Shown piece after piece: positions 11,266-43,400 of a DNA stretch of 64,000 bases. The number at the start of each line of letters is the position of its first letter. Within the stretch, counting starts at the first letter, position 1. The DNA lies in NCBI GenBank assembly GCA_020440645.1, contig JAGRNR010000009.1:5092-69091 (forward strand). The letters run 5' to 3'. The notes below the pieces were generated by a model that made no database searches, was not told where the DNA came from, and saw nothing but the letters and a program-made list of their open reading frames with translations. Source of the stretch: a bacterium (lineage in GTDB: Bacteria > 4484-113 > JAFGCY01). A program made the translations under genes and the position numbers.

Positions 11266-11311
11266 CTTCATTTCCTCCACTCCCCCCTGGAGCATTATGA
11301 CAGCCGCAGCT

Positions 11312-15027: not shown

Positions 15028-15050
15028 ATCCAGTCACTTGCTCCCGTGGA

Positions 15051-20775: not shown

Positions 20776-20801
20776 CCGTTGTCAATTCCAGGTTAAGCAA
20801 T

Positions 20802-21825: not shown

Positions 21826-21851
21826 CGGGGAAGCCCCGCGAGGAGTGATAC

Positions 21852-22784: not shown

Positions 22785-22785
22785 G

Positions 22786-23097: not shown

Positions 23098-23165
23098 GAC
23101 ACAAGTTCGAAAACTGCAGGTTATAGATACTGTTGAGTTGAACCCCCGAAGAGAGGGATTTTTAT

Positions 23166-24071: not shown

Positions 24072-24082
24072 GAGGGCCTGCG

Positions 24083-27395: not shown

Positions 27396-28061
27396 GTGCC
27401 CCTATATTACTTGACAGTGCTGGCGCTCGCCGGGTTCCTGAGTGGATCCCTGCCCTTCGGCTGGCTTGTGGCGCGGCTCGGGGGCATGGACATCCGCAAG
27501 CATGGCAGCGGCAACATCGGCATGACCAATGTCTGGCGCGTGATGGGCTGGAAAGCGGGCCTGACTGTGCTGCTGCTGGACGTGGCCAAGGGCCTGCTGC
27601 CCGTGCTGCTGGCCGGGCGCCTGATGGACACCGTCAACCCACCGGGGCTGACGATCAGTGGCCGCGCCTGGCTGCTGCTGATCACCGGGCTGGCCGCGAT
27701 CCTCGGGCATACATTCACGCCCTGGCTGAAGTTCAGGGGCGGCAAGGGTGTCGCCACCAGCCTCGGTGTGCTGATCGCGCTCTACCAGTTATGGGTGTTG
27801 GCGCCGCTTGGCGTATTCCTGCTGGCGCTGGCAATCACGCGCATGGTGAGTGTCGGCAGCATCCTCGCCGCACTGAGTGTGGGCATCCTTGCGGTGGCCG
27901 TGCCGGCACTCAGGCCCTACATGGCGTTTGGCATCCCAGTGGCTCTGCTCGTGATCTGGACGCACCGCAGCAACATCCGCCGCATCCTCGACGGCACGGA
28001 AAGCCGCGTCGGCAGCGGGAAGAAAAAGCCCGCAGCGGAGTCAACCCAGGCGGATCAGTAG
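27396..28061 (+). CDS. plsY: Glycerol-3-phosphate acyltransferase PlsY
   Basis: Motifs SLPFGWLVARL, HGSGNIGMTNVWRV and GGKGVATSLGV. About 220 aa with multiple TM helices. Confidence 0.85.
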   Translation: MPLYYLTVLALAGFLSGSLPFGWLVARLGGMDIRKHGSGNIGMTNVWRVMGWKAGLTVLLLDVAKGLLPVLLAGRLMDTVNPPGLTISGRAWLLLITGLAAILGHTFTPWLKFRGGKGVATSLGVLIALYQLWVLAPLGVFLLALAITRMVSVGSILAALSVGILAVAVPALRPYMAFGIPVALLVIWTHRSNIRRILDGTESRVGSGKKKPAAESTQADQ

Positions 28062-29755
28062 ATCCCGGCGGAGTGGATCGAATCCAGCATTGCCGAATAG
28101 CCCGCTGACATATGCATCAGCCAGTTCGGATAGATGCCGAGGAAGATGATCGCAGCGCCGAGTGGCAACAGCACGATGGCCTCACGCAGCGGCACACGGC
28201 CCTTCGCCGACTCCGGTGCATCCCCCGGCAGCGTGCGCTGCAGCAGGCTGATCATGTACACCGCGCTCGTCAGCACGCCGATCACCGCCAGGGCCGAGAG
28301 GATCTGCAAAAGCAGGCTGCCGTCGATGCTGCCAACCAGCACCGTCTGCCAGCCCGGCCCGTTCTCGAACGCGCCCATTAAGCTGTACAGCTCGCCCCAG
28401 AAGCCGGCCAGCGCCGGGAAGCCCATGCCGGCGAAGGCCGCCAGCGAAAGCATGCCCGCCAGGAGCGGGGCCGCGCTGCCCAGCCCAGCGATCTCATGCA
28501 CGTTGCGTGTGCCGTAGCGCCGCTCGATGCTGTCCGCCAGCAGGAACAGCGTGGTGATGATCACGCCGTGGCCCACCATGTGGTAGATCGCGCCGGTCGT
28601 TGCCAGCGGGTTCATTGCGCTGCAGCCGAGGATGATGAAGCCCATGTGGCTGATCGAGCTGTAGGCGATCATGCGCTTGATGTCGGTCTGTACCAGCGTG
28701 ACAGCCGCGCCCCAGACGATGCCGATCACCGCCAGCGTGGCAACCACCGGGCCGATCGCGTAACCCTGGTCCGGCAGCGCCCAGTACAGCACGCGCAGGA
28801 ATGCGTATGTCCCGCTCTTGAGCATCACCGCCGCGAGGATCACCGACATTTCCGCCGGGGCCTGGGTATGGGCCGGCGGCAGCCAGGTGTGCAGCGGGAA
28901 CAGCGGTGCCTTGACGGCGAAGGCCACGAGGAAGCCGAGGAAGATCCACATCCTCAGCCAGGGCACGACATCCGTATAGCCCTCGTTCAGCAGGAAGGTT
29001 GCCAGGTTCGGGATCTGGAAGCTGTAAACGCCGGCGCTGATCACCTTGCAGATGATGAGCGACATCAGCATGAACACCGAGCCGGCCATGGTGTACACGA
29101 AGAAGCGGATCGCGGCGCGCGCCGCCTTCTCGCGGTCCTTGCCCCAGCCGCCGATCAGCACGTACATCGGGATCAGCATCCATTCCCAGAACAGGTAGAG
29201 CAGCACGAAGTCCAGCGCCACGAAGGAGCCGATCAGGCCGACCTGCATGAACAGGGTCAGCGCGAGGAATTCCTTCACCCGCTCCGTGCGGTACCAGCCC
29301 CAGATGATGATCAGTGGCAACAGCGCACAGGTCATCAGCACCAGTGGCAATGACAGGCCGTCGATGCCGACGTCGTAGTGCACGCTGAAGCTGCGGCTCT
29401 CGCCGATCTTGATCGCCATCCATTCGATGTCCTGGCGGTACTGGAAGCCCGGGAACTCCGCCTGGAAGGGCGTGTACTGCCCGAGCGGCTTCAGGTCCTG
29501 CACGTTCTGCGAAGTGTCCGTGTATCCGGCGTAGGGCCGCCAGCTGGTTGCACTTTCGGGCAGCCCGGTCAGCAGCAGCACCGCAAACAGCAGGCTGAGC
29601 AGCGAGAACACCAGGGCCACGATCTTGATTGGCAGGATCTTCTTCTTCGGGATCAGGCAGACCAGCAGGCAGCCGACCAGCGGGGCCAGCATCATCTGGG
29701 TGATGGGGTTGCTGATCCACGAGATGAAGCCTATGAAACTCTGCGTCTGGTCCAA
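28055..29755 (-). CDS. nuoM: Complex I antiporter-like subunit of the NuoM/NuoN family (only one copy present in the operon)
   Basis: 566 aa. Motifs WEWMLIPMYVLIGGWGKDREKAARAAIRFFVYTMAGSVFML and PLHTWLPPAHTQAPAEMSVILAAVMLKSGTYAFLR, typical of NuoL/M/N and MrpD-type subunits. Directly follows nuoL. Confidence 0.8.
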   Translation of the reverse strand: MDQTQSFIGFISWISNPITQMMLAPLVGCLLVCLIPKKKILPIKIVALVFSLLSLLFAVLLLTGLPESATSWRPYAGYTDTSQNVQDLKPLGQYTPFQAEFPGFQYRQDIEWMAIKIGESRSFSVHYDVGIDGLSLPLVLMTCALLPLIIIWGWYRTERVKEFLALTLFMQVGLIGSFVALDFVLLYLFWEWMLIPMYVLIGGWGKDREKAARAAIRFFVYTMAGSVFMLMSLIICKVISAGVYSFQIPNLATFLLNEGYTDVVPWLRMWIFLGFLVAFAVKAPLFPLHTWLPPAHTQAPAEMSVILAAVMLKSGTYAFLRVLYWALPDQGYAIGPVVATLAVIGIVWGAAVTLVQTDIKRMIAYSSISHMGFIILGCSAMNPLATTGAIYHMVGHGVIITTLFLLADSIERRYGTRNVHEIAGLGSAAPLLAGMLSLAAFAGMGFPALAGFWGELYSLMGAFENGPGWQTVLVGSIDGSLLLQILSALAVIGVLTSAVYMISLLQRTLPGDAPESAKGRVPLREAIVLLPLGAAIIFLGIYPNWLMHMSAGYSAMLDSIHSAGIY

Positions 29756-31918
29756 CTACTCGTACCTCCCGAGGAAGCTCTGAATGATGCGCCGCAGTGT
29801 CTCGTTGAGCGGGAAGGAGACGACAATGCACATCAGCACGGCACCCAACAGCAGCACGAACATGTAGTTCTGGATCTGCCCGTTCTGCCAGTAGCGGCCG
29901 TGCAGCCGCTTGATGATCCACCAGATCTCGCAGCACCACCAGCGGATGCCGTCGACGAAGTGCAGGTCAAGCCAGGCACTGGCATTGGCCAGCCCACGGC
30001 CGCCGCGCCCGATGCGCGTTGACAGCCAGTCGATCAGGCGGATGTCTGAAATGCCTGCAAGAATTGCGAGGAACTCGCCGAAGCCGCCCACCAGTCCCGT
30101 GAAGAAGGGCTTCAAGTACAGCCCCTCGCGGAAGAATCCGGTCACGCCTGTCAAGAGCGGGGTCGGGCTGGCCAGCCCGCGCTCCGAGGCGGAGACGAAT
30201 CCAAGCACTGCGCCGGCCAGCACCAGCACGACCGAGAGGCCGGCGGCCAGTGGTTCGAAGTTGCCTGCCCATTGCAGGTCGTGCAGCCGGCCCTCGAAAT
30301 AGGCGCGGTAGGATGGCCAGAAGGCGGCGATGCCGATGCTGCCGATGAGCGCCAGCAGGATGGAAATCACAGTCGGTCCGGCCCAGCCATTGCCTGCGGA
30401 CGCTTGCTCCGCCAGGCCATTGGCAGCCTCCTTGCCGGGGGAAGGCATCAGCCCGCTCAGCAGGCGCGCACAGTAGGCTGCGGTAAAGGGAATCGATGCG
30501 ATCAGCAGCAGCGCTCCGGCCTGCCAGTAACCCGGCATGGCGGGCATTGTGCTTGCCAGTGCGTTGCCACCGTAGTCCTGTCCGGCGCGGGACAGCAGCG
30601 CGGAGAGGATCTGGTCCTTGCCGAAGTAGCCCGCCAGCCCGATCACACCGGCCAGGCTCAGGCCGGCCGGCAGCAGGGCCAGCCAGAACAGCTGTCCGCT
30701 GGCGGGGGACTGCCTAAGGTCGTCAAAACTCGGTTCGTCGTCATTATGTGTTGCCTGGGCCTCATGCCAGCGCGCCACCACAATGCCGACCGCAAGGAAC
30801 AGCGCGGCCTTGAACCAGGCATGTGCCAGCAGCTGGAATCGCGCGGCCTCCATCGCCAGCGCCCCGCTGCCCATCACGCACAGCCCAAGCTGGCTGACCG
30901 TGCTCCAGGCCAGCAGCTTCTTCGGCTGCTGCTGGCAACAGGCCACGATCGAGCCCATGAGCATCGTCAGGCCGCCGAGCATCACCGCCCAGGCCAGCGG
31001 GGCCACGTACCAGCCGGGGTTGCCACTGTCCGCCTGCACCGGCACGACAGTTCGCCCGAACAGCAGGTCACTGGCCAACAGCGGCCCGGCCGCCACCAGA
31101 GTTGCACTGTGCAGCAGGGCACTGACCGGGGCCGGGGCCACCATCGCATCCGGCAGCCAGAATGACAGCGGCAGGAGTGCTGCCTTGCCGAGCACGGCCA
31201 GCAGGACTAATAGTCCGGCCACGATCATCCAGTTCACGGCGGACAGCTGGTCCGGTACATGCTGTGCCACCCAGCCGATGCTGACCTGGCTGAGCTGCAC
31301 CATGTGCACACCGAAGCGGCCGAAGCCGAACATGAAGATGAAGATCGCGAACAGCAGCCCGAAGTCCGTGGCGCGCGTCGTCCAGAAGGCCTGGCGCGCT
31401 GCCCGGTTGGCCTCCGGCGTGCCCTTGTGGCGGATCAGCAGGTAGCCGGCGAGGCCCATCATTTCCCAGGCGATGTACAGCAGGATCAAAGTGTCACTGA
31501 CGAGGAACAGCAGCATTGAGCCGCAGAAGAATGTCAGCAGCGCATGGAATTGCGCGGCCTTCGGGTCAGCGCGCCGCTCGCGGATTGCATACAGCAACAC
31601 CGCCACGCCGATCAGGCAGGTTGTCAGGATGAACAGCACCTGCGTGTAGTCCGCGCGCAGGGCCAGCGGGATCGGCGGGAAGGCGCGGATCTCCGTGGTG
31701 TAGCCGCTGATCCAGTTGACCATCCATACCGCGCGGCCGGTCTCGGCATCCAGTCCCGCATTGACGGCGAGCGCCATCCCGGCACTGGCCACAAGCGACA
31801 GCACGCCGAGCAGGGCCGTGACGACGGCCGGCACACGGCGCATGAGCAGGCCCGCCCCCGCCGCCAGCAGCGGCAGAAGCGCGATCAGCGGCAGCAGTCC
31901 CTGCATCTCAGGCACCAC
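29756..31918 (-). CDS. nuoL: Complex I subunit NuoL-like (MrpA-type antiporter-like subunit, 720 aa)
   Basis: Motifs LLYIAWEMMGLAGYLLIRH, LPDAMVAPAPVSALLHSATLVAAG and a long C-terminal extension. Confidence 0.85.
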   Translation of the reverse strand: MVPEMQGLLPLIALLPLLAAGAGLLMRRVPAVVTALLGVLSLVASAGMALAVNAGLDAETGRAVWMVNWISGYTTEIRAFPPIPLALRADYTQVLFILTTCLIGVAVLLYAIRERRADPKAAQFHALLTFFCGSMLLFLVSDTLILLYIAWEMMGLAGYLLIRHKGTPEANRAARQAFWTTRATDFGLLFAIFIFMFGFGRFGVHMVQLSQVSIGWVAQHVPDQLSAVNWMIVAGLLVLLAVLGKAALLPLSFWLPDAMVAPAPVSALLHSATLVAAGPLLASDLLFGRTVVPVQADSGNPGWYVAPLAWAVMLGGLTMLMGSIVACCQQQPKKLLAWSTVSQLGLCVMGSGALAMEAARFQLLAHAWFKAALFLAVGIVVARWHEAQATHNDDEPSFDDLRQSPASGQLFWLALLPAGLSLAGVIGLAGYFGKDQILSALLSRAGQDYGGNALASTMPAMPGYWQAGALLLIASIPFTAAYCARLLSGLMPSPGKEAANGLAEQASAGNGWAGPTVISILLALIGSIGIAAFWPSYRAYFEGRLHDLQWAGNFEPLAAGLSVVLVLAGAVLGFVSASERGLASPTPLLTGVTGFFREGLYLKPFFTGLVGGFGEFLAILAGISDIRLIDWLSTRIGRGGRGLANASAWLDLHFVDGIRWWCCEIWWIIKRLHGRYWQNGQIQNYMFVLLLGAVLMCIVVSFPLNETLRRIIQSFLGRYE

Positions 31919-31953: not shown

Positions 31954-32439
31954 TCAATCCTTCATCAGGTTGGCATCATCAAGCATGATGCTCTTCTTCA
32001 TGCGGTAGAAGGCGATGATGATCGCCAGCCCGACCGCAGCCTCAGCCGCAGCAACGATGATCACGAATATCGAGAACACCTGGCCCATGTTCGTCATCAC
32101 GGATTCCTCCGCGGTGAACGAGGCCAGGGTGGATTTCGGTCCGTAGTAGAAGTTGAACGCGCTCATGTTGATGTTGACGGCGTTGAGCATCAGCTCCAGC
32201 GCCAGCAGCATCCCGATCGCATTGCGCCGCGCGATCACGCCGTACAGCCCGAGGCAGAAGATGAACGCGCTGAGCACGAAGTACTGGTGGTAGTCCACGT
32301 TGGTGAACCACACCATCGGCGTGTCGCCACTTGAGGCGAACCACTGGCGCGAGGCGAACTCGATCGCCTGGATGATCGGCGCCAGGCCCTCGCTCGCCAG
32401 CGAGCCACCCTCGGACTGTTGCAGCAGCAGCAGTAACAT
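31954..32439 (-). CDS. nuoK: Complex I subunit NuoK, with a possible N-terminal extension of about 40 aa
   Basis: ORF 31954..32652. The internal ATG at 32437-32439 overlaps the nuoJ stop (ATGA coupling). NuoK core: YFVLSAFIFCLGLYGVIARRNAIGMLLALELMLNAVNINM ... AEAAVGLAIIIAFYR. Confidence 0.75.
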   Translation of the reverse strand: MLLLLLQQSEGGSLASEGLAPIIQAIEFASRQWFASSGDTPMVWFTNVDYHQYFVLSAFIFCLGLYGVIARRNAIGMLLALELMLNAVNINMSAFNFYYGPKSTLASFTAEESVMTNMGQVFSIFVIIVAAAEAAVGLAIIIAFYRMKKSIMLDDANLMKD

Positions 32440-33485
32440 CAGTCCTTCCTCACCAGGATGATCGCGCCGAGCATCGCCATGAGCAGGAGCACGCTGGCCA
32501 CTTCGAAGGGAAGTGTGTACGTTGCCATCAGCGACCAGCCGATGGCCTGGGTATTGCTTGTCAGTACTGCCGCACTGGGCGGGAACTCGGTGTTCTGCGG
32601 GAACTGCATGAACATCCCGACGAGCGCCATGAAGCCGAACAGCATCGTGCACAAAAGCGCGGCCCAGGGGCTCAGGTCAGTGTTCTGCCTGAGCTCGGTG
32701 CCGATGATGTTCTGGCTGACCATGATGCCGAACAGGAACAGCACCATGATGCCGCCGATGTAGATGATCACCTGCACCATCGCGAGGAACTCAGCGTTGA
32801 GCAGGATGAAGTAGCCGGCCACGCCGAACAGCGAAAGGATCAGCATCAGCGCGGAGTGGAACACGTTGCGCATCGTTACGCAACCGATGCCGCCGCCGAC
32901 CACGCCCGCCGTGAACAGCCAGAAGAAGAAGTTCAGCAGCCTGAGCGCGGGCACGCTGAGTGCCAGCATGCCCCAGAAGAAGGCGATGAAGCCAACGACT
33001 GTGAGGATTGCCAGCAGGCGCCGGTGGTCATGGAAGCGGTGCAGCGAAAGCTGCACGCAGGCGATCGTGCCGCCGACCAGCCCGAGGATCAGCATATTTG
33101 AAAGGTTGACAACCAGCGGCTGGAACAGCAGGGAGCTGATCACGAACACCGCCAGGCCAGCGCTGGCTGCCACCCGCAGCAGTCCGGCCTCCGCCGGCAG
33201 GCGGTTGAACAGCATCAGGTTCAGCAGGTAGAAGCCGGCGAGCATGCTGGCGCCCACCAGGATGCGTGCGTCCAGCTGCAAGGCCGCGGACCAGTCCAGT
33301 TTTCCACCCAGCGCTGCCAGCGGGGCGGCCAGCAGCGCCACAAGCACCGCGATCCCGGCCGTTGCCAGCAGCTGGCGGAAGATGCCGTCCAGCCGGTTGA
33401 CGAGCAGTCCGGCGGCCGCCAGCAACGCGGCCAGCAGGGCCACATTGCGCAGCAGCATAAGGGCGGCGGGCAGGCTGGTTTCCAT
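32439..33485 (-). CDS. nuoJ: Complex I subunit NuoJ with an N-terminal multi-TM extension of about 190 aa
   Basis: The C-terminal half matches NuoJ (FHSALMLILSLFGVAGYFILLNAEFLAMVQVIIYIGGIMVLFLFGIMV ... EVASVLLLMAMLGAIIL). The N-terminal half is additional hydrophobic helices. Confidence 0.75.
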   Translation of the reverse strand: METSLPAALMLLRNVALLAALLAAAGLLVNRLDGIFRQLLATAGIAVLVALLAAPLAALGGKLDWSAALQLDARILVGASMLAGFYLLNLMLFNRLPAEAGLLRVAASAGLAVFVISSLLFQPLVVNLSNMLILGLVGGTIACVQLSLHRFHDHRRLLAILTVVGFIAFFWGMLALSVPALRLLNFFFWLFTAGVVGGGIGCVTMRNVFHSALMLILSLFGVAGYFILLNAEFLAMVQVIIYIGGIMVLFLFGIMVSQNIIGTELRQNTDLSPWAALLCTMLFGFMALVGMFMQFPQNTEFPPSAAVLTSNTQAIGWSLMATYTLPFEVASVLLLMAMLGAIILVRKD

Positions 33486-34480
33486 CAGGAACTCACCTCC
33501 CCGCGTGGCCGCCTGAGCGGCAGCACCAGCGCCTCGCGATTGGCAACCGGCATCGCCCAGCGCTCCTCGAACACGACGAGCGGGGTGCCGTCCGCGCGCT
33601 TCAGTTCGCCCAGCGCGGGATCATGGTCATAGCGTCCGAGGTCAACGAACAGCACCGTCGGCTGCCCGGGGGCCTGCGCGATTGCACCGCTGCCATCGGC
33701 GGCGATGATGCGCAGCGCTTCCTCCTCAGTCAGTGAGTCGACATTCAAGAGCGGCACGCCGCGGTAGGCCGCCGGCAGCTTCGGCCGGCTGCGCGGATAG
33801 TCCTCGGTGAAGGGCTCGCTCGAAGCCATCCGGGCGGTCTCGCGGAAGCCGGTCAGCACGGAGGTGCCGTAGCGGTGCACGCGGTTGCTGAAGAACCAGA
33901 ATTGGCTGAAGCCGGTTGCAAGGTAGCTCAGGTTGAGCACGAACACCAGGAACCAGAACAGCGCCCAGAGCATGAAGTAGCCGAGCTGGAACTTGAACAC
34001 GGGGAGGCTGCCGGTCTCGCGCCAGATGGCGAAGCCCTCGCCGCTGAGCAGAAGCGTCAGGTTCGGCGTGTCGGCAATGCCCTTCACGCTCATCTTCGGG
34101 TGGATGCGGTCCAGCGGGTCGAATTCCACGATGAAGAAGAACAGGATGATCACGAACAGCAGCAGACGCCAGAGCGTGAAGTCGCGCACCATCCAGCGGC
34201 TGTACTTCACAAGCGCGCCGGATGCCCACCAGAAGAAGCCGAGAATCGCCGGCAGGGCCAGCAGCAGGCCGCTAGCAGTGAACCACATCAGAGAGTACTG
34301 CTCGGAGGGCTGCTTGGAGGCATAGTCGTCAAACAGCGCGCCGTATTTCGTGTAGACGAACACCAACGTGAACCAGGACACGGCGATGAAGCCATAGAAC
34401 TTGAACCAGTCCATCGCGGTGTAGCCGAACCAGCGCTTCGGCAGCGGATGGTGGATTGTCAGGTCATGCCCGTCAGGCAT
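33485..34480 (-). CDS. Hypothetical membrane protein embedded in the nuo-like operon (about 331 aa: 4-5 TM plus a C-terminal soluble domain)
   Basis: ORF 33485..34561. Likely start MPDGHD. Its stop overlaps the nuoJ start (ATGA). No Cys motifs and no match to any known complex I subunit. Confidence 0.55.
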   Translation of the reverse strand: MPDGHDLTIHHPLPKRWFGYTAMDWFKFYGFIAVSWFTLVFVYTKYGALFDDYASKQPSEQYSLMWFTASGLLLALPAILGFFWWASGALVKYSRWMVRDFTLWRLLLFVIILFFFIVEFDPLDRIHPKMSVKGIADTPNLTLLLSGEGFAIWRETGSLPVFKFQLGYFMLWALFWFLVFVLNLSYLATGFSQFWFFSNRVHRYGTSVLTGFRETARMASSEPFTEDYPRSRPKLPAAYRGVPLLNVDSLTEEEALRIIAADGSGAIAQAPGQPTVLFVDLGRYDHDPALGELKRADGTPLVVFEERWAMPVANREALVLPLRRPRGEVSS

Positions 34481-34943
34481 GCTGCACCTCCTCCACCGTT
34501 TCCGGCTCGTTGGCAGCACTGCCGCCCGCTCCTGCTGCGGCGATGTTGCGCAGCTGGGCATGGTGCCCGGGCGCCGTCACCACGAACCAGTAGAGGAAGC
34601 CGGGCAGCAACAGCAGCACCGGCCGCAGTGTGAACTGCAGTTCGTACTGCAGCCACAGCGAATACAGGCAGCCGCAGGCCGCGAAGCTCCACAGCAGGGA
34701 AGCGATGCCGGGCCGCCGCCTGAACCAGGGGTTGATCCAGGCCGCATTGCGCGCCGGCGTCAGCGGCAGCACCGCCAGCAGCAGGCCGATTGCCAGCAGG
34801 GCCAGCGGGCCGAACCACTGCGTTGTCAGCACGGGTGCCACTCCAAGCACGATGCGCAGGTACAGGCCCCAGGCCCCGGCGGCCACGAGCAGCAGCTCTC
34901 CGAGGAGATGCAGCAGGTTCTGGCTGGTTGACAGCATCCTCAT
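34473..34943 (-). CDS. Hypothetical membrane protein embedded in the nuo-like operon (about 156 aa, 3-4 TM)
   Basis: ORF 34473..35042. Likely start MRMLSTSQNLL immediately after the nuoH stop. Overlaps the downstream gene by about 8 nt. Confidence 0.5.
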   Translation of the reverse strand: MRMLSTSQNLLHLLGELLLVAAGAWGLYLRIVLGVAPVLTTQWFGPLALLAIGLLLAVLPLTPARNAAWINPWFRRRPGIASLLWSFAACGCLYSLWLQYELQFTLRPVLLLLPGFLYWFVVTAPGHHAQLRNIAAAGAGGSAANEPETVEEVQHA

Positions 34944-36715
34944 CCGGTCCAGCTCACCTCCCGGCGGGGCTGCGGATGTCGGCGCTGCACGAACAGGATG
35001 CGCCAGGCCATCAGGAGGATGAACAGGCCGAAGAACAGGCACAGCACGTTGTAGCCCCAGAAGAAGGCCTTCTCGGGGACTGTCATCACCGCCAGTGCTT
35101 CAGCTGTTGTCAGCGTCTGGTACTGGGTGACGCGCTGCAGGGCGGTCACGTCGACATCGGAGACGGCCAGCTGGTTCGCGCTGAACCAGGGATGGCGGTT
35201 GACGACGCCGAGCGCGGTGGCCGCCATCACGACCACGCTGGCCGGCAGCAGGAACTTCCAGGAGAAGAACATGATCTGGTCCACGCGGATGCGCGGCATC
35301 GTGGAGCGCGCCCATATGAAGAAGAAGCACACGGCGTAGGTCTTCAGCAGGAACCAGAACAGGCTCGTCAGCCACAATCCGTCGGGGCCGAGGAACATCG
35401 GGCCCTTCCAGCCGCCGAAGAAGCAGACGGTCATGATCGCGCTGACGATGAACACGTTGGAGTACTCGGCGACATAGAACAGCGCGAAGCGCATCCCGCT
35501 GTACTCCACCAGGTAGCCGCCCAAGAGCTCGTTCTGCGCTTCCGGCAGGTCAAAGGGCGGGCGGTTGGTCTCGGCAAGGCTGACAACGAGGTAGATGATG
35601 AAGGCCGGGAACAGCGGCAGGATGCCCCAGGTCATCGTCTGGCGCTGCACGATCTCCGTCAGGTTCAGCGAACCGGCAAAGATGGCAACGCACAGCAGGC
35701 TCATCAGCATCGGGATTTCGTAGGTCAGCAGCATCGCGGCCTCGCGCATCGCGCCGACCAGTGCATATTTGTTGTTGGAGGCGTAGCCGGACATGATCAC
35801 GGCCACGAGGAACATCGCAAAGTCGGCGATGATCAGGAGCAGGCCGACATTCAGGTCCTGGATCATGTAGTAGATGATCTGCCCGTCGACAGCCGCCACG
35901 CCGAACGGGATCACCACCCAGCTCAGGAGCGCCGGCAGGTAGACGAGGATCGGCGCGATCAGGTACAGCAGCTTGTCAGCGCTGAGCGGAACGGTGTCTT
36001 CCTTGAAGAAGATCTTGATCGTGTCGTAGAAGCCCTGGCGCCAGTAGTAGCGCAGCATGTAGCTCATGTAGAGCACGAAGGCGACCACGGTGCACAGCAC
36101 GGTGAGCTGCGGCAAAAACGGGATGTGCGCCTTCGGGATGAAGCCCAGCAGGAGAGCGACGAGCATGCCACCGCAGGACGCGAGGGATGGCCAGGCCAGC
36201 AGTGACAGCAGCGTTGCCAGGAAGCGCCAGACGGAGGTCTGCGCGGCCTGCATCCGGCCGAGCGCTGGCAGGATCATCAAGCGGTTGATCAGCCCCATCA
36301 TGCCCACGGCGAAGAACAGGATGATCCAGCCGCCGAACTGTTGCCAGCCGGCGGTGCCGCCGGTCCAGTAGTTGATGCCGTACAGCAGCGCGGGCAGGCC
36401 GATCAGCACGCCGATCTGCAGGAAGATCCGCCGGAAGCGCTGCGGGGTGACCTCGCCGTACTCCTGCGGGCCGCGGCGGCCCTGCATGCGCGCCATCAGG
36501 CGGCGTTCCCAGACCTGCAGGCCGATGGTGATCATCAGCTCCAGGAGGAAGATCAGCAGGAGCGCCGTCACCAACATGATGCCGTTGGCAACCTCCGGGC
36601 TGAAGCGCAGGCCGGGCAGCGGCTCGGTGTTGAGCCAGGCGCGCATCGCCTCCCAGACGGTGCGGGCCTCGTCCATGTCGTAGCGCTGCTGCAGGATTGC
36701 CAGCATCGGGAGCAT
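34940..36715 (-). CDS. nuoH: Complex I subunit NuoH with N- and C-terminal extensions (about 591 aa)
   Basis: ORF 34940..36793. The likely ATG overlaps the nuoD TGA stop by 1 nt (ATGA). NuoH core motifs: IKIFFKEDTVPLSADKLLYLIAPIL, ADFAMFLVAVIMSGYASNNKYALVGAMR and AETNRPPFDLPEAQNELLGGYLVEYSGMRFALFYVAEY. About 200 extra N-terminal residues (4-5 TM) and about 100 extra C-terminal residues. Confidence 0.8.
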   Translation of the reverse strand: MLPMLAILQQRYDMDEARTVWEAMRAWLNTEPLPGLRFSPEVANGIMLVTALLLIFLLELMITIGLQVWERRLMARMQGRRGPQEYGEVTPQRFRRIFLQIGVLIGLPALLYGINYWTGGTAGWQQFGGWIILFFAVGMMGLINRLMILPALGRMQAAQTSVWRFLATLLSLLAWPSLASCGGMLVALLLGFIPKAHIPFLPQLTVLCTVVAFVLYMSYMLRYYWRQGFYDTIKIFFKEDTVPLSADKLLYLIAPILVYLPALLSWVVIPFGVAAVDGQIIYYMIQDLNVGLLLIIADFAMFLVAVIMSGYASNNKYALVGAMREAAMLLTYEIPMLMSLLCVAIFAGSLNLTEIVQRQTMTWGILPLFPAFIIYLVVSLAETNRPPFDLPEAQNELLGGYLVEYSGMRFALFYVAEYSNVFIVSAIMTVCFFGGWKGPMFLGPDGLWLTSLFWFLLKTYAVCFFFIWARSTMPRIRVDQIMFFSWKFLLPASVVVMAATALGVVNRHPWFSANQLAVSDVDVTALQRVTQYQTLTTAEALAVMTVPEKAFFWGYNVLCLFFGLFILLMAWRILFVQRRHPQPRREVSWTG

Positions 36716-37866
36716 CACTTGTCGACCTCCCCGATCATGATGTCGAGGCTGCCGTAGATCACGAACAGGTCCGCCAGCAGGTAGCCGCGGCACAGCTCGT
36801 CCAGCAGGAACAGGTGGTACAGGCTCGGCGCACGCAGGTGCATGCGGCTCGGGCGGTTGCTGCCGTCGCTGACGAGTGTCAGGCCGAGCTCGCCGCGCGG
36901 GCTCTCGACCGCCGTGTAGACCTCGCCGCGTGAGACCTGCATCGCAGCGAAGTCTGGGCTGACATCCGCCGCCCGCAGCTCGCCGTTGTCAATGTAAGCC
37001 AGGCAGTGCTCAATGATGCGCAGGCTCTCGCGCATCTCGACGAAGCGCACGCGGTAGCGGTCCAGCACATCGCCATACTCGCCGGTCGGCACATGCAGCT
37101 CCAGCTCGCCGTACATCGCATAGGGCTGGTCGCGGCGCAGGTCATGCGCGATCCCGCTGCCGCGCAGCACGGGCCCGGTGGCACCGTGCTCGAAGGCGAA
37201 CTCGGGCTCGAGCGTGCCGATCAGCTCGCTGCGGTTGACCCAGATCGCGTTGTCAGAGAAGAAGTCCTCGTATTCATCCAGCCGGCCCTGGAACCACAGG
37301 CAGAATGCCCGCACATGGCCGCTGAAGTCCTCCGGCGGGGCAGTGCGCACGCCGCCGGGCACGATCCAGCCGTGGTGGTGGCGGTGCCCGCTGAGCATCT
37401 CCAGCAGGTCGAGCAGCATCTCGCGCTCGCGCAGCGAGATGAAGATCGGGGTGTAGGCGCCGGCCTCCAGGCCGAGGTTGCCAAACCAGAACAGGTGGTT
37501 GCCGATCCGGCTCAGCTCCAGCACAAGGGTGCGCAGCCACTGCGCACGGGCCGGAACCGTGATCCCCTCGATGCGCTCGATGGCGTCCGCCACCAGCCAG
37601 TCCGCATTGCTGCCGGCCAGCCACTCGCAGCGGGACAACAGCCCCGCCGCCTGGGCGTAGTTGCGCTGGGTCACCAGCTGCTCCACGCCGCGGTGCATGA
37701 AGCCGACCTCCGGCGTGATGCGCTCGATCAGCTCGCCGTCCGCCTGTACCCGCAGTTCCAGCGGGCTCGGCAGGCTCGGATGCTGCGGGCCGACGGAGTA
37801 GACCAGCTTCTCGGTCAGCAGCGGGTCGCGGCGGATCTCGACACGGCGATCAGAGCTGCGCGTCAT
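36715..37866 (-). CDS. nuoD: Complex I 49-kDa subunit NuoD-like (no [NiFe] cysteine motifs)
   Basis: Motifs VGPQHPS, EVGFMHRGVEQL, RIGNHLFWFG and C-terminal SLDIMIGEVDK. ATG at 37866 (the track starts at the TTG three nt upstream). Overlaps nuoC by about 20 nt. Confidence 0.85.
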   Translation of the reverse strand: MTRSSDRRVEIRRDPLLTEKLVYSVGPQHPSLPSPLELRVQADGELIERITPEVGFMHRGVEQLVTQRNYAQAAGLLSRCEWLAGSNADWLVADAIERIEGITVPARAQWLRTLVLELSRIGNHLFWFGNLGLEAGAYTPIFISLREREMLLDLLEMLSGHRHHHGWIVPGGVRTAPPEDFSGHVRAFCLWFQGRLDEYEDFFSDNAIWVNRSELIGTLEPEFAFEHGATGPVLRGSGIAHDLRRDQPYAMYGELELHVPTGEYGDVLDRYRVRFVEMRESLRIIEHCLAYIDNGELRAADVSPDFAAMQVSRGEVYTAVESPRGELGLTLVSDGSNRPSRMHLRAPSLYHLFLLDELCRGYLLADLFVIYGSLDIMIGEVDK

Positions 37867-38434
37867 CAAGCACCTCCCGCATCGCCGCGTCCGCGCGCTG
37901 TTTCAGCACGTTTTCAGCGTAGTTCTCATGTGAGGCAGCCCTGAACTCCCGCCTGAGCGGGAAGCCCTGCAGCTGCGGGTCGAGGATCAGGCCAATGAGG
38001 TTAGGGTTGCCGGCGAAGGGGATGCCGAAGAACTCGAAGATCTCGCGCTCCATCAGCTCCGTGGCCCGCCAGATCAGGCTCAGGCTGGGGTGCACGCTCT
38101 GCCCGGCATAGGCCGGCGCGGCCTCGCTGTCCTCCCCGCCCGGATCCGTTGCCGGGGGATTGCCCTCCAGCAGGGTGAATTTCCATTTCAGTGTGAGGCT
38201 GACGTCATGCCGCCTGCCGTGCCTGAGCGTCAGGTAGAGGTGGAAGTCCGGCCCGCCGAGGTGGTTGGCGGTCATGTTCAGCGCACGGATGAAGCCGATG
38301 TTCTTCAGCTGGCGGCAGACCAGCGGCAGCTGGCCGCTGTCCGTCAGGATCGCCCAGCCGCGGGCGGGGTCCAGCAGCAGCACATCACCGCAGTCCTCAC
38401 GGATCTGACCGGCAAGCTCATCAGGGAGCACCAA
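37850..38434 (-). CDS. nuoC: Complex I 30-kDa subunit NuoC
   Basis: NuoC signature SLSLIWRATELMEREIFEFFGIPFAGNPNLIGLIL. First gene of the operon, downstream of an AT-rich spacer. Confidence 0.85.
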   Translation of the reverse strand: MVLPDELAGQIREDCGDVLLLDPARGWAILTDSGQLPLVCRQLKNIGFIRALNMTANHLGGPDFHLYLTLRHGRRHDVSLTLKWKFTLLEGNPPATDPGGEDSEAAPAYAGQSVHPSLSLIWRATELMEREIFEFFGIPFAGNPNLIGLILDPQLQGFPLRREFRAASHENYAENVLKQRADAAMREVLDDAQL

Positions 38435-38749: not shown

Positions 38750-39025
38750 ATGCCACAGCAGCATGAATTAATTACTGCAATCCTCGGACTTGGCGTGTTG
38801 TTGCTGATGATCGTGCAACGCCGCCAGCTGCGGCTCATCCCTGACTACCGCTGGCTGTTCCTCTCCTACTGCCTGATCCTGCTGGCCTGGCTGCTGACCA
38901 TTGCGGAAGATTACTGGCTGCCGGTCTACATGAACCTGCTGGAGCATATCTGTTACCTGGCCAGCGCAGCGCTGGTCGCCTGGTGGACACAGAAGTTCCT
39001 CAGAAGGGAAGCGCCACAGCAATGA
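38750..39025 (+). CDS. Small hypothetical membrane protein (about 91 aa) translationally coupled to the histidine kinase gene
   Basis: ORF 38657..39025. Likely start MPQQHELITAILGLGVLLLM. Its TGA stop overlaps the kinase ATG (ATGA). Confidence 0.45.
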   Translation: MPQQHELITAILGLGVLLLMIVQRRQLRLIPDYRWLFLSYCLILLAWLLTIAEDYWLPVYMNLLEHICYLASAALVAWWTQKFLRREAPQQ

Positions 39026-40836
39026 GCATGCTGCTGACGGTGTTTGACCTGCTGAGCCTGCTGGCCGTGCTGTCTGCACTGTGGCTGGCGGCAGCCAGGC
39101 GGATTGCCGGCCTGCGGCGTGACTACCTGTGGTGCCTGATCATCCTGCTGGTGGTGCTGGGTCTCAACTTCCTCAGCAACCTGCTGGACAACAGCGGGCT
39201 GAGCCCCTGGCTGGAGCGCTTCGAGGACTACCCCGGACTGCTGCAGCCGGTGTTCTGGGGCATCCTCCTGATGAGCCTGGTGCAGGACCGCGCCCTGCGC
39301 CGCACCGAGCTCTCTGAACAGCGGCTGCGCGGCCTGCTGGACGCGATGCGTGACGGGGTTGCCACTATTGACCCGGGTGGCGTGTTCCGCTTTGCCAACC
39401 CGGCGGCCGCGGAAATCCTCGGGGTTGCCCACGGCAGCCTTAGCGGCCGCAGTCTGGACGAGTTCTGGCTGGCTACCGAATCGCATACTTGCCGGATGCT
39501 GCCACATTCCCCGGGCCAGGATTACAGCGCCTACGAATGCGGCATCCGCCATGGCAGCGGCGACAGCCTCGTGCTGCTGCTGCAGGTCTCGCCGATCCCG
39601 GGCCAGCCCCGCCAGCGCCTGCTGTTCATGCATGATGTGACCCCGCTGCGCCGGGCCGAGCACAGCCTGCAGCAGGCCCAGGCCCAGCTCGGACAGGCCC
39701 AGCGGCTGGAGGCGATCGGCACGCTGGCCAGCGGCATCGCCCATGACTTCAACAACATCCTGTTCGCGATTTCCGGCAACAGCCAGATCGCGCTGGATAC
39801 TGAGGGACTGACCGTCGATGCGCGGGAGAGCCTGCGCGAGATCGACACCGCCAGCCGCCGCGCCTCCGACCTGGTGGCGCAGATCCTCAACTTCAGCCGC
39901 AGCGAGAAGAGCCGGACACGGGACCTGTTGCCACTTCCGGTTGTCAAGGAAGTGCTGCGCCTGCTGCGCTCCACCGTGCCGCCGCAGGTCAGCATCCAGC
40001 TCAGCCATGACGAATCGACGTGCCGGATCCATGCCGACCCGACCGACCTGCACCAGCTGCTGATGAACCTCTGCACCAATGCGATCCAGGAGATGGCGGT
40101 GGAGGGCGGGACGCTGCGGGTCCGGTTGGAGTGCAGCAATCCACCGCCGACACTGGCCGAGCGGGGAATGCTGCAGCCTAAACCACACCTGATGCTCAAG
40201 GTCAGTGACACGGGGGGCGGTATTCCACCGGATGCGCTGCCGCACATCTTCGAGCCCTTCTTCACGACCAAGCCAAGCGGTGAGGGCACCGGTCTAGGGC
40301 TGTTCGTTGTCAGCGGGATCGTCAAGCGCCTGCAGGGACAGATCGAGATTGACAGCGAACCGGGCCATGGCAGCAGCTTCACGGTCTGGCTGCCGCTGTC
40401 CAGCGGGGCCGCTGATGCCGACGATGCCGGGCCGGGGCAGGCCACCGGCCGCGGCCGGGGCCGGCTGCTGGTGGTTGACGACGAGCCGGCGGTCAACCGG
40501 GTGCTGGCGCTGATGCTCGGCCAGCTCGGCTACAAGGTGACAACCTATAGCGACAGCTACCGCGCGCTCAGTGAGTTCCAGACCAACCCGGAGCAGTACG
40601 ACCTGCTGCTGTGCGACATCTCGATGCCGGGCCTGCGCGGCGATGAACTGGTGAAGCGGATACGCTCCGTTCGCCCAGGCCTGCCGGTGGTGCTGTGCTC
40701 CGGCAATCCGGATGTTCTGCCTCCGGGCAGTGCAACTGAACTGGGTGTGCATGCAGTGCTTAAGAAACCGGTTGACAAGCCACAGCTGGCGGATTGCATC
40801 GCCGAGGCACTTGGCAGTAACCGTGCACAGGCCTGA
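39022..40836 (+). CDS. Hybrid sensor histidine kinase (TM sensor, PAS, HisKA, HATPase_c and C-terminal receiver domains)
   Basis: ORF 38983..40836. H-box IGTLASGIAHDFNNIL. HATPase G-boxes DTGGGIP and GEGTGLGL. REC domain LLVVDDEPAVNRVL ... DLLLCDISMPG ... K. PAS-like segment before the H-box. Confidence 0.8.
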   Translation: MSMLLTVFDLLSLLAVLSALWLAAARRIAGLRRDYLWCLIILLVVLGLNFLSNLLDNSGLSPWLERFEDYPGLLQPVFWGILLMSLVQDRALRRTELSEQRLRGLLDAMRDGVATIDPGGVFRFANPAAAEILGVAHGSLSGRSLDEFWLATESHTCRMLPHSPGQDYSAYECGIRHGSGDSLVLLLQVSPIPGQPRQRLLFMHDVTPLRRAEHSLQQAQAQLGQAQRLEAIGTLASGIAHDFNNILFAISGNSQIALDTEGLTVDARESLREIDTASRRASDLVAQILNFSRSEKSRTRDLLPLPVVKEVLRLLRSTVPPQVSIQLSHDESTCRIHADPTDLHQLLMNLCTNAIQEMAVEGGTLRVRLECSNPPPTLAERGMLQPKPHLMLKVSDTGGGIPPDALPHIFEPFFTTKPSGEGTGLGLFVVSGIVKRLQGQIEIDSEPGHGSSFTVWLPLSSGAADADDAGPGQATGRGRGRLLVVDDEPAVNRVLALMLGQLGYKVTTYSDSYRALSEFQTNPEQYDLLLCDISMPGLRGDELVKRIRSVRPGLPVVLCSGNPDVLPPGSATELGVHAVLKKPVDKPQLADCIAEALGSNRAQA

Positions 40837-40884
40837 CGGGCGGGCGCGTCAGTGCTTTGTGATATACATGGGGAGGAGGCAGGC

Positions 40885-41250
40885 ATGGCGAAGAAGAAGT
40901 TCGAGGATGTGGACCCGCAGGTGCTGGCGGCCTACATGAAGATGATCGGGGGCGTTGAAGGGGTCGAGGCCAAGGGGGCCGCCGCGCCGTACACCTCCCT
41001 GAATGGCAATATGTACTCCAGTATCTCGAAGTTCAACGAGATCGGCCTGCGGCTGGCGAAGGATGAGCGCGAGGCCTTCCTCGAGAAGTACGACACCCGG
41101 CTCTACCACTCCATCCCCGGATATGTGCAGCGGGAGTATGTCACCGTGCCGCCTGCACTGTTTGGCAACACACGCACTCTGCGCAGCTGGTTCCGGAAGT
41201 CCTACGACTACGTCTCATCACTGCCGGCGAAGCCCACGAAGAAGAAGTAG
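40885..41250 (+). CDS. Hypothetical protein (about 121 aa)
   Basis: ORF 40852..41250. Likely start MAKKKF, preceded by GGAGGAGG. Lys-rich termini. No assignable motif. Confidence 0.5.
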   Translation: MAKKKFEDVDPQVLAAYMKMIGGVEGVEAKGAAAPYTSLNGNMYSSISKFNEIGLRLAKDEREAFLEKYDTRLYHSIPGYVQREYVTVPPALFGNTRTLRSWFRKSYDYVSSLPAKPTKKK

Positions 41251-41320
41251 CGGGAAGGATTTCGGCGCTCGCTTGTCGGCAGTAGCGGGCGCGCTTGGCG
41301 ACGCCATGGAGTGATTGCCG

Positions 41321-41471
41321 CGAAGCAATGAGTGATGGTGTGTTGGTCTGCAGACCAACAGGGCCCTGTGGCTCTCAAGAGCCACACTCCGCCGCGTGCG
41401 CGCAGCCACGCGGAAAGCCCCTCTGCAATGAGCAATGCGGAGCAAGCAATGAGCCCGACGACACTCATTGC
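41321..41471. other. Cluster of four consecutive hairpins/palindromes with a thrice-repeated GCAATGAG motif in a 490-bp convergent intergenic spacer (candidate structured RNA or repeat element)
   Basis: TTGGTCTGCAGACCAA (perfect 16-bp palindrome, 41343-41358). GTGGCTCT-ca-AGAGCCAC (41368-41385). CGCGTG-cgcgcagc-CACGCG (41393-41412). GCAATGAG-cccgacgaca-CTCATTGC (41445-41470). GCAATGAG also occurs at 41325 and 41425. Confidence 0.35.
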
Positions 41472-41741
41472 CAGACTCTGCGGCTCTGCGTTCACCAATA
41501 TCGCTCCACCCCAGCCGCATTGCCAACCAAGTGCAGGCTAGCCTCAGCCCAGTCAAACTGGAGAATTGTCAACACAGAGCCACCGAGCGCACAGAGTTTT
41601 CTGATCAGCTCCAGTCCCCGCATTTCCCTGACTTCGCTGCATCCCCTCCCAATCGCGGCTGGGCCGCGCCGGTTCTTCCGGTAACCCTGACCCTTGTTCT
41701 TCAGGTTGACTGATTCACTGGGAAATCCGAGACGAGCCAGT

Positions 41742-42539
41742 CTATGAATACAGAAGATCCTCAAAATCCTCCGTCAGCTCTCCATGGAAAGTAGGGTAGT
41801 CAACCCTCCGGACATTGCGCCGCCATGGTCGCGGCCCCAGCTCGCTGCTTGTAAGCAGCTTGAGGTGAAGCGGATCGACATCTGTTGCCAGGCTGCATTC
41901 CGATCCGATGATCCCGTCTTTGTCCATGAAGTCCGTGTTTGGCCAGATATTGAAACTGCGACCGGATGACGTCCGGATCGAAGTCGGATTGAAGCCCATG
42001 GCAATCTCCATGGCATTGTAGCTTTCCCTGCGGATATCCAGCGGCAGGGCAAACCTTGACTGCTCAACATGCGCTGCATCCGACAATGCAGACTCTCCCT
42101 TTTGCCATTCGGGAAGGGGCATCGAGGCACTCAGGATGACAAAGGCCTTCTCTTGCCAGACGCCCGCATGATCCCTGACACAGCATGGGAACATCAGCCA
42201 CTTCATCCGCCGTTGAAACGCCGCGAATCCCACGCTGCCAATGTTCAGCAGCAGTTCCGCAAGCACTTTCGCCGGTTTCTCCATACCGGCATCCCAGGAC
42301 CTGGCCTTATCCAGGCAGCCTGCCGGAATTCTGAGCAGAAATCCCGATGCATGATCGAGATACCAGTCGGCATTGCATCTGGTGCAGATGTGCAGGATTC
42401 CGCGTTGCCAGCTTTCCCTGCGGATGATGAGCTTGTGCAGTTTGAAGTATGGGGTTTCCTCCCGGACACTTGCAGGAGGATCAGGATCCCAGGGGAGTGA
42501 TTCCCTGACCTGACAAGGGCAGCTGGCCTTGATACTCAT
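41742..42539 (-). CDS. Hypothetical protein (265 aa) with an N-terminal Cys cluster (CPC...CTRC), co-oriented downstream of nuoA-nuoB
   Basis: Protein-like composition, 20 nt downstream of the nuoB stop. The four Cys in SCPCQ...HICTRC suggest a small zinc-ribbon. Not a ferredoxin-type CxxCxxCxxxCP motif. Confidence 0.5.
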   Translation of the reverse strand: MSIKASCPCQVRESLPWDPDPPASVREETPYFKLHKLIIRRESWQRGILHICTRCNADWYLDHASGFLLRIPAGCLDKARSWDAGMEKPAKVLAELLLNIGSVGFAAFQRRMKWLMFPCCVRDHAGVWQEKAFVILSASMPLPEWQKGESALSDAAHVEQSRFALPLDIRRESYNAMEIAMGFNPTSIRTSSGRSFNIWPNTDFMDKDGIIGSECSLATDVDPLHLKLLTSSELGPRPWRRNVRRVDYPTFHGELTEDFEDLLYS

Positions 42540-42558: not shown

Positions 42559-43011
42559 CTACCGCCACGCAAACCGCTCATCCAGCGCACCCGAGAGGAT
42601 GCGCTCCCGGAGCGCGATGATGCCGTCGATCAGCTGCTCGGGCCGCGGCGGGTCGCCCGGCACATAGATGTCCACTGGTACGATGCGGTCCACTCCCCCG
42701 TCCACCGCATAGCTGCCGTCGAAGGGCGCGCCGCTGATCGCCCCCGCGCCAAACGCCATCACGAAGGCCGGGTCGGCCATCGAGGCATGCAGCCGGCGGA
42801 TCACCGGGGCCATCTTGTTGTTGACGACGCCGGCCACGATCAAAAGGTCCACCTGGCGCGGGCTGGGGCGCATCACCTCAGAGCCGAAGCGCGCGATGTC
42901 ATAGCGCGGCGAGATCGCGCTGAACAGTTCCAGCGTGGCGTAGTCCAGTCCGAGCATCAGCGGCCACAGGGAATGGGCACTGGCCTCGCGGATGAGGTCC
43001 TTCAGACCCAT
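42559..43011 (-). CDS. nuoB: Complex I 20-kDa subunit NuoB-like, with all four N2 cluster cysteine ligands replaced
   Basis: Clear NuoB scaffold (SLWPLMLGLDYATLELFSAISPRYDIARFGSEVMRPSPRQVDLLIVAGVVNNKMAPVIRRL ... RIVPVDIYVPGDPPRPEQL). The canonical CC, C (GACATSG) and C (PGCPP) positions read DY, G (GAGAISG) and D (PGDPP). Confidence 0.8.
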   Translation of the reverse strand: MGLKDLIREASAHSLWPLMLGLDYATLELFSAISPRYDIARFGSEVMRPSPRQVDLLIVAGVVNNKMAPVIRRLHASMADPAFVMAFGAGAISGAPFDGSYAVDGGVDRIVPVDIYVPGDPPRPEQLIDGIIALRERILSGALDERFAWR

Positions 43012-43400
43012 TCCAGCGCTCCCTTGCGGTAGGCATAGGCCCAGCCGACGAGCAGGATGCCGAGGAACACGAACATCTCGCCCAGTGAGGCGGCCCCGAT
43101 CGGCGTGAAGGTGATGTCGTCATTGCCGAACACCAGCAGCCGGAAAGCGGTGGCCCAGGGGAAGATGAACATGATGTCCACGTCGAACATGAGGAACACG
43201 ATCGCGAGGATGTAGAAGCGGATGTTGAAGCGCACCAGCGCATCGCCGGTGGCCTGCGCGCCGGATTCATAGCTCAGGCGCTTGAGGAAGTTCGGCCGCC
43301 GCGGACGCCACAGGTTCAGGAAAGCGAATGCCAGCCCGATCAGCACCGCCCCGCCCAGCAGGAAGAGTGCCACCCAGTTGTACTGTCCAACGGTGTTCAT
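43002..43400 (-). CDS. nuoA: Complex I subunit NuoA
   Basis: 132 aa, three TM. The NuoA motif is FDVDIMFIFPWA. Overlaps nuoB by 10 nt. Confidence 0.85.
   Translation of the reverse strand: MNTVGQYNWVALFLLGGAVLIGLAFAFLNLWRPRRPNFLKRLSYESGAQATGDALVRFNIRFYILAIVFLMFDVDIMFIFPWATAFRLLVFGNDDITFTPIGAASLGEMFVFLGILLVGWAYAYRKGALEWV

Follow-up and report, generated by a model that had tools for sequence, protein, structure and literature searches.

A NuoD-like subunit without quinone head-group ligands in a predicted cofactor-free bacterial derivative of complex I

Background

The central open question of complex I is how proton pumping is coupled to the quinone chemistry of the peripheral arm, about 200 angstroms from it. 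We describe here a NuoD-like subunit, related to Thermus Nqo4 and to the mitochondrial 49-kDa subunit (NDUFS2), and the operon in which it is encoded, on a 64,000-nucleotide stretch of contig JAGRNR010000009.1 (positions 5,092 to 69,091, assembly GCA_020440645.1) from a bacterium of the lineage 4484-113; JAFGCY01. This whole stretch is referred to as the window, and all positions are given in its coordinates unless another locus is named. The subunit and its closest relatives have lost the histidine and tyrosine that bind the quinone head group, and the iron-sulfur (Fe-S) cluster ligands of the neighbouring subunits are also gone.

Among membrane-arm subunits, NuoK is the counterpart of MrpC. 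Homologues of MrpA and MrpD are found in NuoL and NuoM (PMC12361115). The Ehr complexes belong to the superfamily of complex I and group 4 hydrogenases, and their large subunits have lost the active-site ligands, the defining feature being the missing CxxC Ni-Fe motifs, and branch with the group 4 [NiFe] hydrogenases; the function of these complexes is unknown and electron-transfer roles are still being discussed (PMC6349859, PMC10284858, PMC10432482). NuoD or FpoD proteins without His38 and/or Tyr87 (Nqo4 numbering) have been described in Fpo, Sulfolobus, Nautiliales and Desulfurobacteriales, and were read as ancestral or differently reacting redox complexes (Degli Esposti 2015, PMC4758237). 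In deactive bovine complex I the redox and ion-transfer domains are uncoupled and the enzyme acts as a Na+/H+ antiporter (PMC3464577).

Features of the NuoD-like subunit

The NuoD-like gene, which public gene calls begin at the ATG, encodes a protein that was compared with all PDB chains using phmmer (HMMER) and matched the mitochondrial 49-kDa subunits (E = 2.6e-84), the alignments being gap-free over the N-terminal ~300 residues. It matches PF00346 (E = 2.1e-80) and reaches 386 bits with NCBIfam NF004739 (cutoff 360), compared with only 20 bits (E = 2.6e-4) for the best hydrogenase model. Its AlphaFold2 (AF2) model has a predicted template modelling score (pTM) of 0.82 and a Foldseek TM-score of ~0.85 to complex I 49-kDa subunits. 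The protein sequences of the window were found again, identical, in independent NCBI, ENA and Logan assemblies.

In the PDB alignment, residues 20-304 of Nqo4 (chain 2fug_4/4hea) pair with residues 15-299 of the NuoD-like protein at an offset of +5, so that Pro33 (37768-37770) is equivalent to His38, Trp82 (37621-37623) to Tyr87 and Glu134 (37465-37467) to Asp139. The same equivalences were obtained by BLASTP against an Nqo4 sequence. The residues lie in the motifs GPQHPSLPSP (37762-37791) and SRCEWL (37618-37635), and in the pairings with the mitochondrial 49-kDa subunit GPQHPSLPSPL stands opposite GPQHPAAHGVL, and SRCEWLA opposite DRLDYVS.

Among 5.8 billion proteins, the closest relatives form a clade of ~40 protein clusters at 56-95% identity, beyond which the next matches fall abruptly to 46%; the clade consists of environmental relatives and has 38 full-length members. 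One NuoD-like relative (P0039) leaves the family sequence after about residue 125 (SHPVLVRQ...) in a frameshift-like manner, which could reflect misassembly or a genuine pseudogene in one lineage. A MAFFT alignment was made with 81 canonical NuoD sequences, comprising E. coli NuoCD and NuoD of many phyla taken from the loci of a contig search with alignment A1 (see below), which yielded canonical NuoD loci only (best 46% identity). All 81 sequences have His and Tyr in the columns of E. coli H224 and Y273 (100% invariant), whereas all five clade members included have Pro, Ala or Val and Trp. A second alignment (A1) gave His and Tyr in 21/21 canonical sequences, but no His (P/A/V/T/I/C/S instead) and Trp in 38/38 clade sequences. 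The corresponding clade motifs, GPQHPSL[P/A/V/T/I/C/S][A/S]P and SR[C/T]EW, occur in every one of the 38 full-length members, and the 21 more distant matches all carry STHG and DY. The missing ligands are a fixed trait of the lineage and neither chance nor an alignment artefact.

Five changes at the quinone head-group site define the clade: Thr37 to Leu, Val40 to Pro, Asp86 to Glu, Tyr87 to Trp and Asp139 to Glu. The last is conservative, with Glu in 97% of the clade and Asp in 99-100% of canonical sequences. The Leu and Pro substitutions are near-invariant and the Trp is found in 100% of the clade, while the position formerly occupied by the histidine is free to vary. The predicted head-group site is more hydrophobic in the clade, and in part re-constrained.

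The initial annotation had provisionally read the loop GPQHPSTHG as GPQHPSLPS (His38 to Pro) and RMDYL as RCEWL (Tyr87 to Trp). Both readings are borne out by the PDB alignments, by MAFFT with the 81 canonical sequences and by A1, and the neighbouring motifs quoted in support of them (EVGFMHRGVEQL and RIGNHLFWFG) are both present in the translation. Formal alignment, as it had called for, here with PDB chains including Nqo4 and with canonical NuoD, places no His or Tyr at the positions equivalent to 38 and 87.

A new metal site in the NuoD-like protein, formed from an HRHHH run with Cys80, Cys288 and Cys359, was considered and rejected. Cys80 is Thr in some clade members, and the HH pair and the Cys359 position are also present in Thermus Nqo4.

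Loss of iron-sulfur cluster ligands

The four NuoB cysteines that ligate cluster N2 (E. coli C63, C64, C129 and C158) occur without exception in 41 canonical sequences and are replaced by Tyr, Ala or Ser, Gly and Asp, respectively, in all five clade members. In the window these positions lie in GLDYATLE, FGAGAISGA and PGDPP. Also lost in the clade is a near-invariant NuoB arginine (E. coli R50) that shortly precedes the WP motif and may be the one facing the quinone tunnel. New acidic residues occur in the former N2/quinone pocket, namely NuoB A62 to Asp, NuoB C158 to Asp and the Glu at NuoD Asp139.

The ferredoxin-like subunit NuoI (TYKY), which carries clusters N6a and N6b, was not matched in the window or in the relatives' loci by phmmer with E. 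coli NuoI. The gene designated Y occupies the operon position of NuoI between nuoH and nuoJ, and its product was identified by structure and profile-profile comparison alone, Pfam and NCBIfam giving no match for it. The Y family is small (47 matches among 5.8 billion proteins, and 27 representatives among 1.84 billion). Y itself has a membrane domain of ~190 aa at the N-terminus and a C-terminal ferredoxin-like domain, in keeping with an AF2 model (predicted local distance difference test, pLDDT, of 82) in which long N-terminal helices are joined to a C-terminal domain that is small and of alpha/beta type. Compared profile to profile with canonical NuoI, it gave 93.2% probability (E = 3e-7), placing Y 197-286 on E. 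coli NuoI 1-101 and including the T-x-x-YP...LP-x-x-YRG signature. Over the two CxxCxxCxxxCP regions, Y reads EEALRIIAADGSGAI in the first and VDLGRYDHDPALGEL in the second, with all eight cysteines gone, and the C-terminal domain is without Cys in 29/43 family members. By these alignments, Y is a retained NuoI, predicted to be cluster-free and membrane-anchored.

The annotation had taken NuoB to be cysteine-less, which is correct: the window protein contains no cysteine and all four N2 ligands are replaced. It had also taken NuoI to be absent, which is wrong, and "absent NuoI" is to be replaced by cluster-free NuoI, because Y aligns to NuoI by profile and has no cysteine. Its broader suggestion that the quinone-reduction site has been abandoned is supported by the loss of both head-group ligands, the changes at Asp139, Thr37 and Val40, the N2-free NuoB and the lack of NuoE, NuoF and NuoG in the operon, none of these three being found in the operon of the window or of its relatives as judged from the Pfam labels of called genes only. 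The encoded proteins offer no ligands for N2, N6a or N6b, none for the quinone head group and no input module, so that they cannot transfer electrons to quinone, and the complex is very probably redox-dead. Ion gradients or ligand binding would then be the only remaining energy sources.

Membrane arm and selection

The membrane subunits were aligned with 53-76 canonical sequences per subunit. In NuoH, 56/63 canonical-conserved columns are identical in the clade, and the retained residues include E36, R37, D63, K70, E71, R148, E157, R209, D213, E216, E220, E228, E241, K274, R286, R291, R293 and D295. The E-channel residues D79 of NuoA, Y59 of NuoJ and E36 and E72 of NuoK are likewise kept, as are E144, D178, K229, H254, H338, K342 and K399 of NuoL and E144, K234, K265, H322, H348 and E407 of NuoM. 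The only consistent changes of charged residues are NuoH E218 (Q or S) and NuoA E81 to Asp.

Compared with the 86%-identical relative L089, the ratios of nonsynonymous to synonymous substitution (dN/dS) are 0.14-0.39 (Table 1), which shows that the genes are functional and under purifying selection, not decaying. These values bear on the possibility that the operon is a decaying relic, or an artefact of assembly or binning, without function. The loss of catalytic residues does resemble decay, the operon is split by inserted genes in the window genome, and P0039 appears frameshifted. The open reading frames (ORFs) are, however, intact and translationally coupled, some 38 diverged lineages carry the same substitutions in the same operon, and the 40 invariant columns across A1, the invariant Trp82 and the identical sequences from independent assemblies are at odds with both decay and artefact. 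This explanation is effectively refuted.

Several membrane elements have been added. The loop between transmembrane (TM) helices 1 and 2 of NuoH, which lines the quinone cavity in canonical NuoH, carries an inserted hairpin of 2-4 TM helices that is confined to the cofactor-less clade. The same confinement holds for the small membrane protein Z and for the extra N-terminal helices of NuoJ, and an additional C-terminal helix of NuoH is common to the sister operons described below. Z and the inserts are poorly conserved. The lateral-helix region of NuoL is ~30 residues longer than in canonical NuoL despite the missing NuoN, which suggests that the new elements take up space along the membrane arm.

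These elements could also be where a redox function persists. The complex might still be a redox enzyme with a cofactor or site that escaped recognition, such as a quinone site or heme within the new helices (the NuoH insert, Z, the Y membrane domain or the NuoJ extension), or might dock an external partner. The many new TM segments have no assigned role, the NuoD-like protein contains several histidines (HRHHHGW), and a UbiE-like methyltransferase is encoded upstream of the operon in L089, all of which could be accommodated by this explanation. Weighing on the other side, NuoA, NuoB and Y have no cysteine at all, visual inspection of the sequences examined revealed neither a CxxCH nor an Fe-S motif, the subunits scanned have no Pfam or NCBIfam match to a redox domain, and the electron path from NuoB to NuoD is gone; Z and the inserts, as stated, are poorly conserved, and the HH pair, as noted, recurs in Thermus Nqo4. 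We regard a residual redox function as improbable.

Operon organization

The operon of the window lies on one strand in the order NuoA-NuoB, an unrelated insertion, and NuoC-D-H-Z-Y-J-K-L-M, with neighbouring genes overlapping or abutting (Table 1). Four relatives, whose contigs reach 2.7 Mb, have the order A-B-C-D-H-Z-Y-J-K-L-M as well, in some cases with additional small membrane proteins; the locus L083 has no recognisable nuoA, and in L089 the part from C to L is present and the contig end falls within the next gene. The operon ends at M in 7 loci, and there are only two antiporter-like subunits (L and M) rather than three, E. coli NuoN matching only the M-type ORF by phmmer in the window and four relatives.

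Table 1. Subunit genes of the complex I-like operon in the window, with dN/dS measured against L089
Gene product	Position	Strand	Length (aa)	dN/dS	Remarks
NuoA-like	43002..43400	minus	132		D79 kept, E81 is Asp; no cysteine
NuoB-like	42559..43011	minus	150		no cysteine
NuoC-like	37850..38431	minus	193	0.18	stop overlaps nuoD-like start
NuoD-like	36715..37866	minus	383	0.16	ORF 36715..37869, TTG directly then ATG (37866)
NuoH-like	34940..36715	minus	591	0.20	start overlaps nuoD-like stop (TGATG)
Z, small membrane protein	34473..34943	minus		0.39	
Y, NuoI homologue	33485..34480	minus	331	0.21	no cysteine
NuoJ-like	32439..33485	minus	348	0.29	extra N-terminal helices; Y59 kept
NuoK-like	31954..32439	minus	161	0.14	N-terminal extension; TM2-3 loop insert; E36, E72 kept
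NuoL-like	29756..31915	minus	719	0.35	lateral-helix region ~30 aa beyond canonical length
NuoM-like	28055..29755	minus	566		final operon gene, no nuoN after

The gap between nuoB and nuoC (38750-42539) contains, all on the opposite strand, a 91-aa ORF, a PAS-HisKA-HATPase-REC hybrid sensor kinase (39022-40836) and a TfoX_N-like ORF (40885-41250). The operon of L089 is split at the same place, and those of more distant relatives are contiguous. The Cys-rich ORF X (41742-42539, minus strand) was considered as an accessory subunit and rejected, as it is unlike the small genes found in relatives at the junction of nuoB and nuoC; it has no counterpart in relatives, and neither X nor Z is matched by Pfam or NCBIfam. 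In the locus L002, a toxin-antitoxin pair of MNT nucleotidyltransferase and HepT (13956-14569 of that locus) is inserted between the nuoH-like gene and Y. Directly upstream of nuoA, the window encodes four tandem paralogous lipoprotein-like proteins with PKD and PPC domains (43454-45553, 45676-47172, 47904-49997 and 50092-52914). Two large ankyrin-repeat proteins, probably unusual for bacteria, are encoded in the window (1628-4021 and 57978-60308), and an Ank_4 protein is found near the L002 operon. The window was found to contain no housekeeping marker.

Evolutionary derivation

Relatives of the operon form a series from redox-competent to cofactor-free. In L092 (JGI 3300033150, 5993-15869) the ten genes are arranged A-B-C-D-H-I-J-K-L-M, without N or EFG, NuoB has all four cysteines, and NuoD has His38, Tyr87 and Asp139. 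Sister operons of this type (L003, P0042-P0050 and the P0181 family) are rare, amounting to ~20 protein clusters, all from uncultured bacteria, and their NuoD proteins are 44-47% identical to that of the window and make up the nearest canonical branch. They share with the window the subunit set, the membrane-anchored NuoI, the C-terminal helix of NuoH, the lack of NuoN and NuoEFG, and FliL and NHL neighbours; they differ from it in having the 4 + 8 cysteines, His38, Tyr87 and Asp139, a normal NuoH TM1-TM2 loop and no Z. Correspondingly, distant members of the Y family have the same N-terminal membrane domain with intact 2x[4Fe-4S] motifs, and one of them (P0184) is half-degenerate. This protein belongs to L090 (6045-15753), in which NuoB is Cys-less, NuoD has Trp in place of the His and Ile in place of the Tyr with Asp139 kept, and NuoI has lost one motif and kept 3/4 cysteines of the other.

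In a neighbour-joining tree without bootstrap, the cofactor-less clade and L090 are sister to the L092 group and nested in canonical NuoD. The series and the position in the tree together indicate that the cofactor-less state arose from an ancestor that was redox-competent, lacked NuoN and had its NuoI anchored in the membrane. In the window motA, motB, fliL and an NHL-repeat gene (21025-25750) are convergent to nuoM, and in L092 an NHL-repeat protein and then FliL follow the operon (18603-20931). As FliL and NHL flank both types of operon, the locus is orthologous between the redox-competent and the cofactor-free lineages. A functional link of the operon to the ion cycle of the flagellar stator would be a possibility.

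In the vicinity of the L090 operon are genes for an Fe-dependent repressor that has a FeoA domain and for a member of the MgtC family. Iron scarcity may be entertained, as an idea, as a candidate driver of cluster loss.

Proposed function

On balance we favour the interpretation that the NuoD-like protein is a subunit of a ten-to-eleven-protein derivative of complex I (A, B, C, D, H, Z, I*, J, K, L and M, with I* denoting Y) without redox machinery, which would act as a gradient-driven ion translocator. The complex would then be independent of redox reactions and most likely carry out Mrp-like secondary cation/proton antiport, with NuoL and NuoM passing protons and the counter-ion moving through the E-channel and the former quinone cavity; the cap formed by B, C, D and I* would be a structural and gating lid over this cavity, without catalytic activity. 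The deactive bovine enzyme provides a precedent for this mode. The antiport function itself is a reasoned guess, to which we give at best even chances.

Several points weigh against this interpretation. The case rests on sequences and models, with the transported ion and its direction being guesses, and in the AF2 model of the NuoD-like protein the beta1-beta2 loop has a pLDDT < 50, so that the model is silent on whether the cavity persists. A plain antiporter has no obvious need for four peripheral subunits held at dN/dS 0.16-0.21 or for an invariant Trp at the old head-group site, and Mrp antiporters work without any such cap. The analysis covered 64 kb of the genome, and a Cys-bearing paralogue of NuoB or NuoI, or a separate nuoN, could be encoded elsewhere, although there is none in the related operons.

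The constraint on the peripheral module and the invariant Trp hint at a retained role in ligand binding or gating. As the antiporter model leaves both unexplained, we have kept an alternative in which the proton-motive force drives non-redox work at the old quinone tunnel, where a hydrophobic molecule (quinone, isoprenoid or lipid) would be bound, extracted or flipped, or a ligand would be sensed so as to gate ion flow. It would account for the hydrophobic, partly re-constrained head-group site with its Leu37, Pro40 and invariant Trp, for peripheral subunits constrained as much as the membrane core, and for a tunnel-lining NuoH loop that gains a membrane hairpin in this clade only. No gene for a partner enzyme, carrier or lipid pathway is conserved beside the operon across relatives, however, and we know of no member of the complex I superfamily that acts in this way; we consider this alternative unlikely. 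Tentatively, and with less conviction than for a gradient-driven translocator as such, the whole Q-module (NuoB, NuoC, NuoD and NuoI) may have been repurposed as a non-redox chamber for ligand or ion binding and gating, which would drive or control ion translocation through the intact E-channel and antiporter modules.

Were the Q-module repurposed in this manner, it would represent a new mode of energy coupling in the complex I superfamily, and the series of redox-active (L092), half-degenerate (L090) and cofactor-free forms opens the coupling mechanism to direct tests. The clade is a natural experiment in which every electron-transfer ligand and the quinone ligands have been removed, and in which purifying selection has maintained the proteins of the Q-module together with the loops of NuoH and NuoA, the carboxylates of the E-channel and the Lys/Glu chains in NuoL and NuoM. 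Continued ion transport by the complex would mean that its membrane machinery and lid can run without redox input, and would offer a minimal cofactor-free system for structural and transport work, with the redox-competent and intermediate relatives as built-in controls. The literature searched, in which many subscription papers were outside our reach, held no earlier account of an assembly of complex I type with the Q-module proteins retained and all redox ligands missing, nor, in searches that were not aimed at NuoN-less forms, of the NuoN-less sister with a membrane-anchored NuoI.

There is also a consequence for annotation. The NuoD-like proteins of the clade score above the NuoD equivalog threshold and carry the database name "NADH-quinone oxidoreductase subunit D", and the NuoI homologue is invisible to Pfam and NCBIfam, so that metabolic reconstructions of these uncultured bacteria would wrongly infer a working or "incomplete" complex I.

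Comparison with known systems

The window protein shares its sequence, its fold and a nuo-type operon position beside NuoC and NuoH with the NuoD/Nqo4/49-kDa subunits of complex I, from which the system differs in lacking His38 and Tyr87, in the change of Asp139 to Glu, in an N2-less NuoB and a Cys-free NuoI, and in having no NuoE, NuoF, NuoG or NuoN. With the Ehr complexes it has in common the membership of the superfamily and the loss of active-site ligands from the large subunit. Unlike those large subunits, it branches inside bona fide NuoD (in the unbootstrapped tree) and belongs to a complex from which all Fe-S ligands are gone; its place within NuoD and its score above the NuoD equivalog cutoff set it apart from the Ehr large subunits, to which it does not belong.

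The proposed mode of action and the lack of a redox cofactor are common to the window complex and Mrp. To our knowledge, Mrp has no homologues of NuoH, NuoB, NuoC, NuoD or NuoI, whereas the window complex keeps NuoH, NuoB, NuoC, NuoD and an I-like subunit, all under strong constraint, and their presence means that it is not Mrp; the Mrp models scored far below their cutoffs with the L and M proteins of the window. Deactive mammalian complex I is a reversible and fully cofactor-loaded state, and the disconnection in the window is genetically fixed. The variants of the Fpo, Sulfolobus and Nautiliales type are a precedent for ligand loss alone, while the loss in the window is derived from an ancestor that had the His and Tyr and is combined with the loss of every Fe-S ligand.

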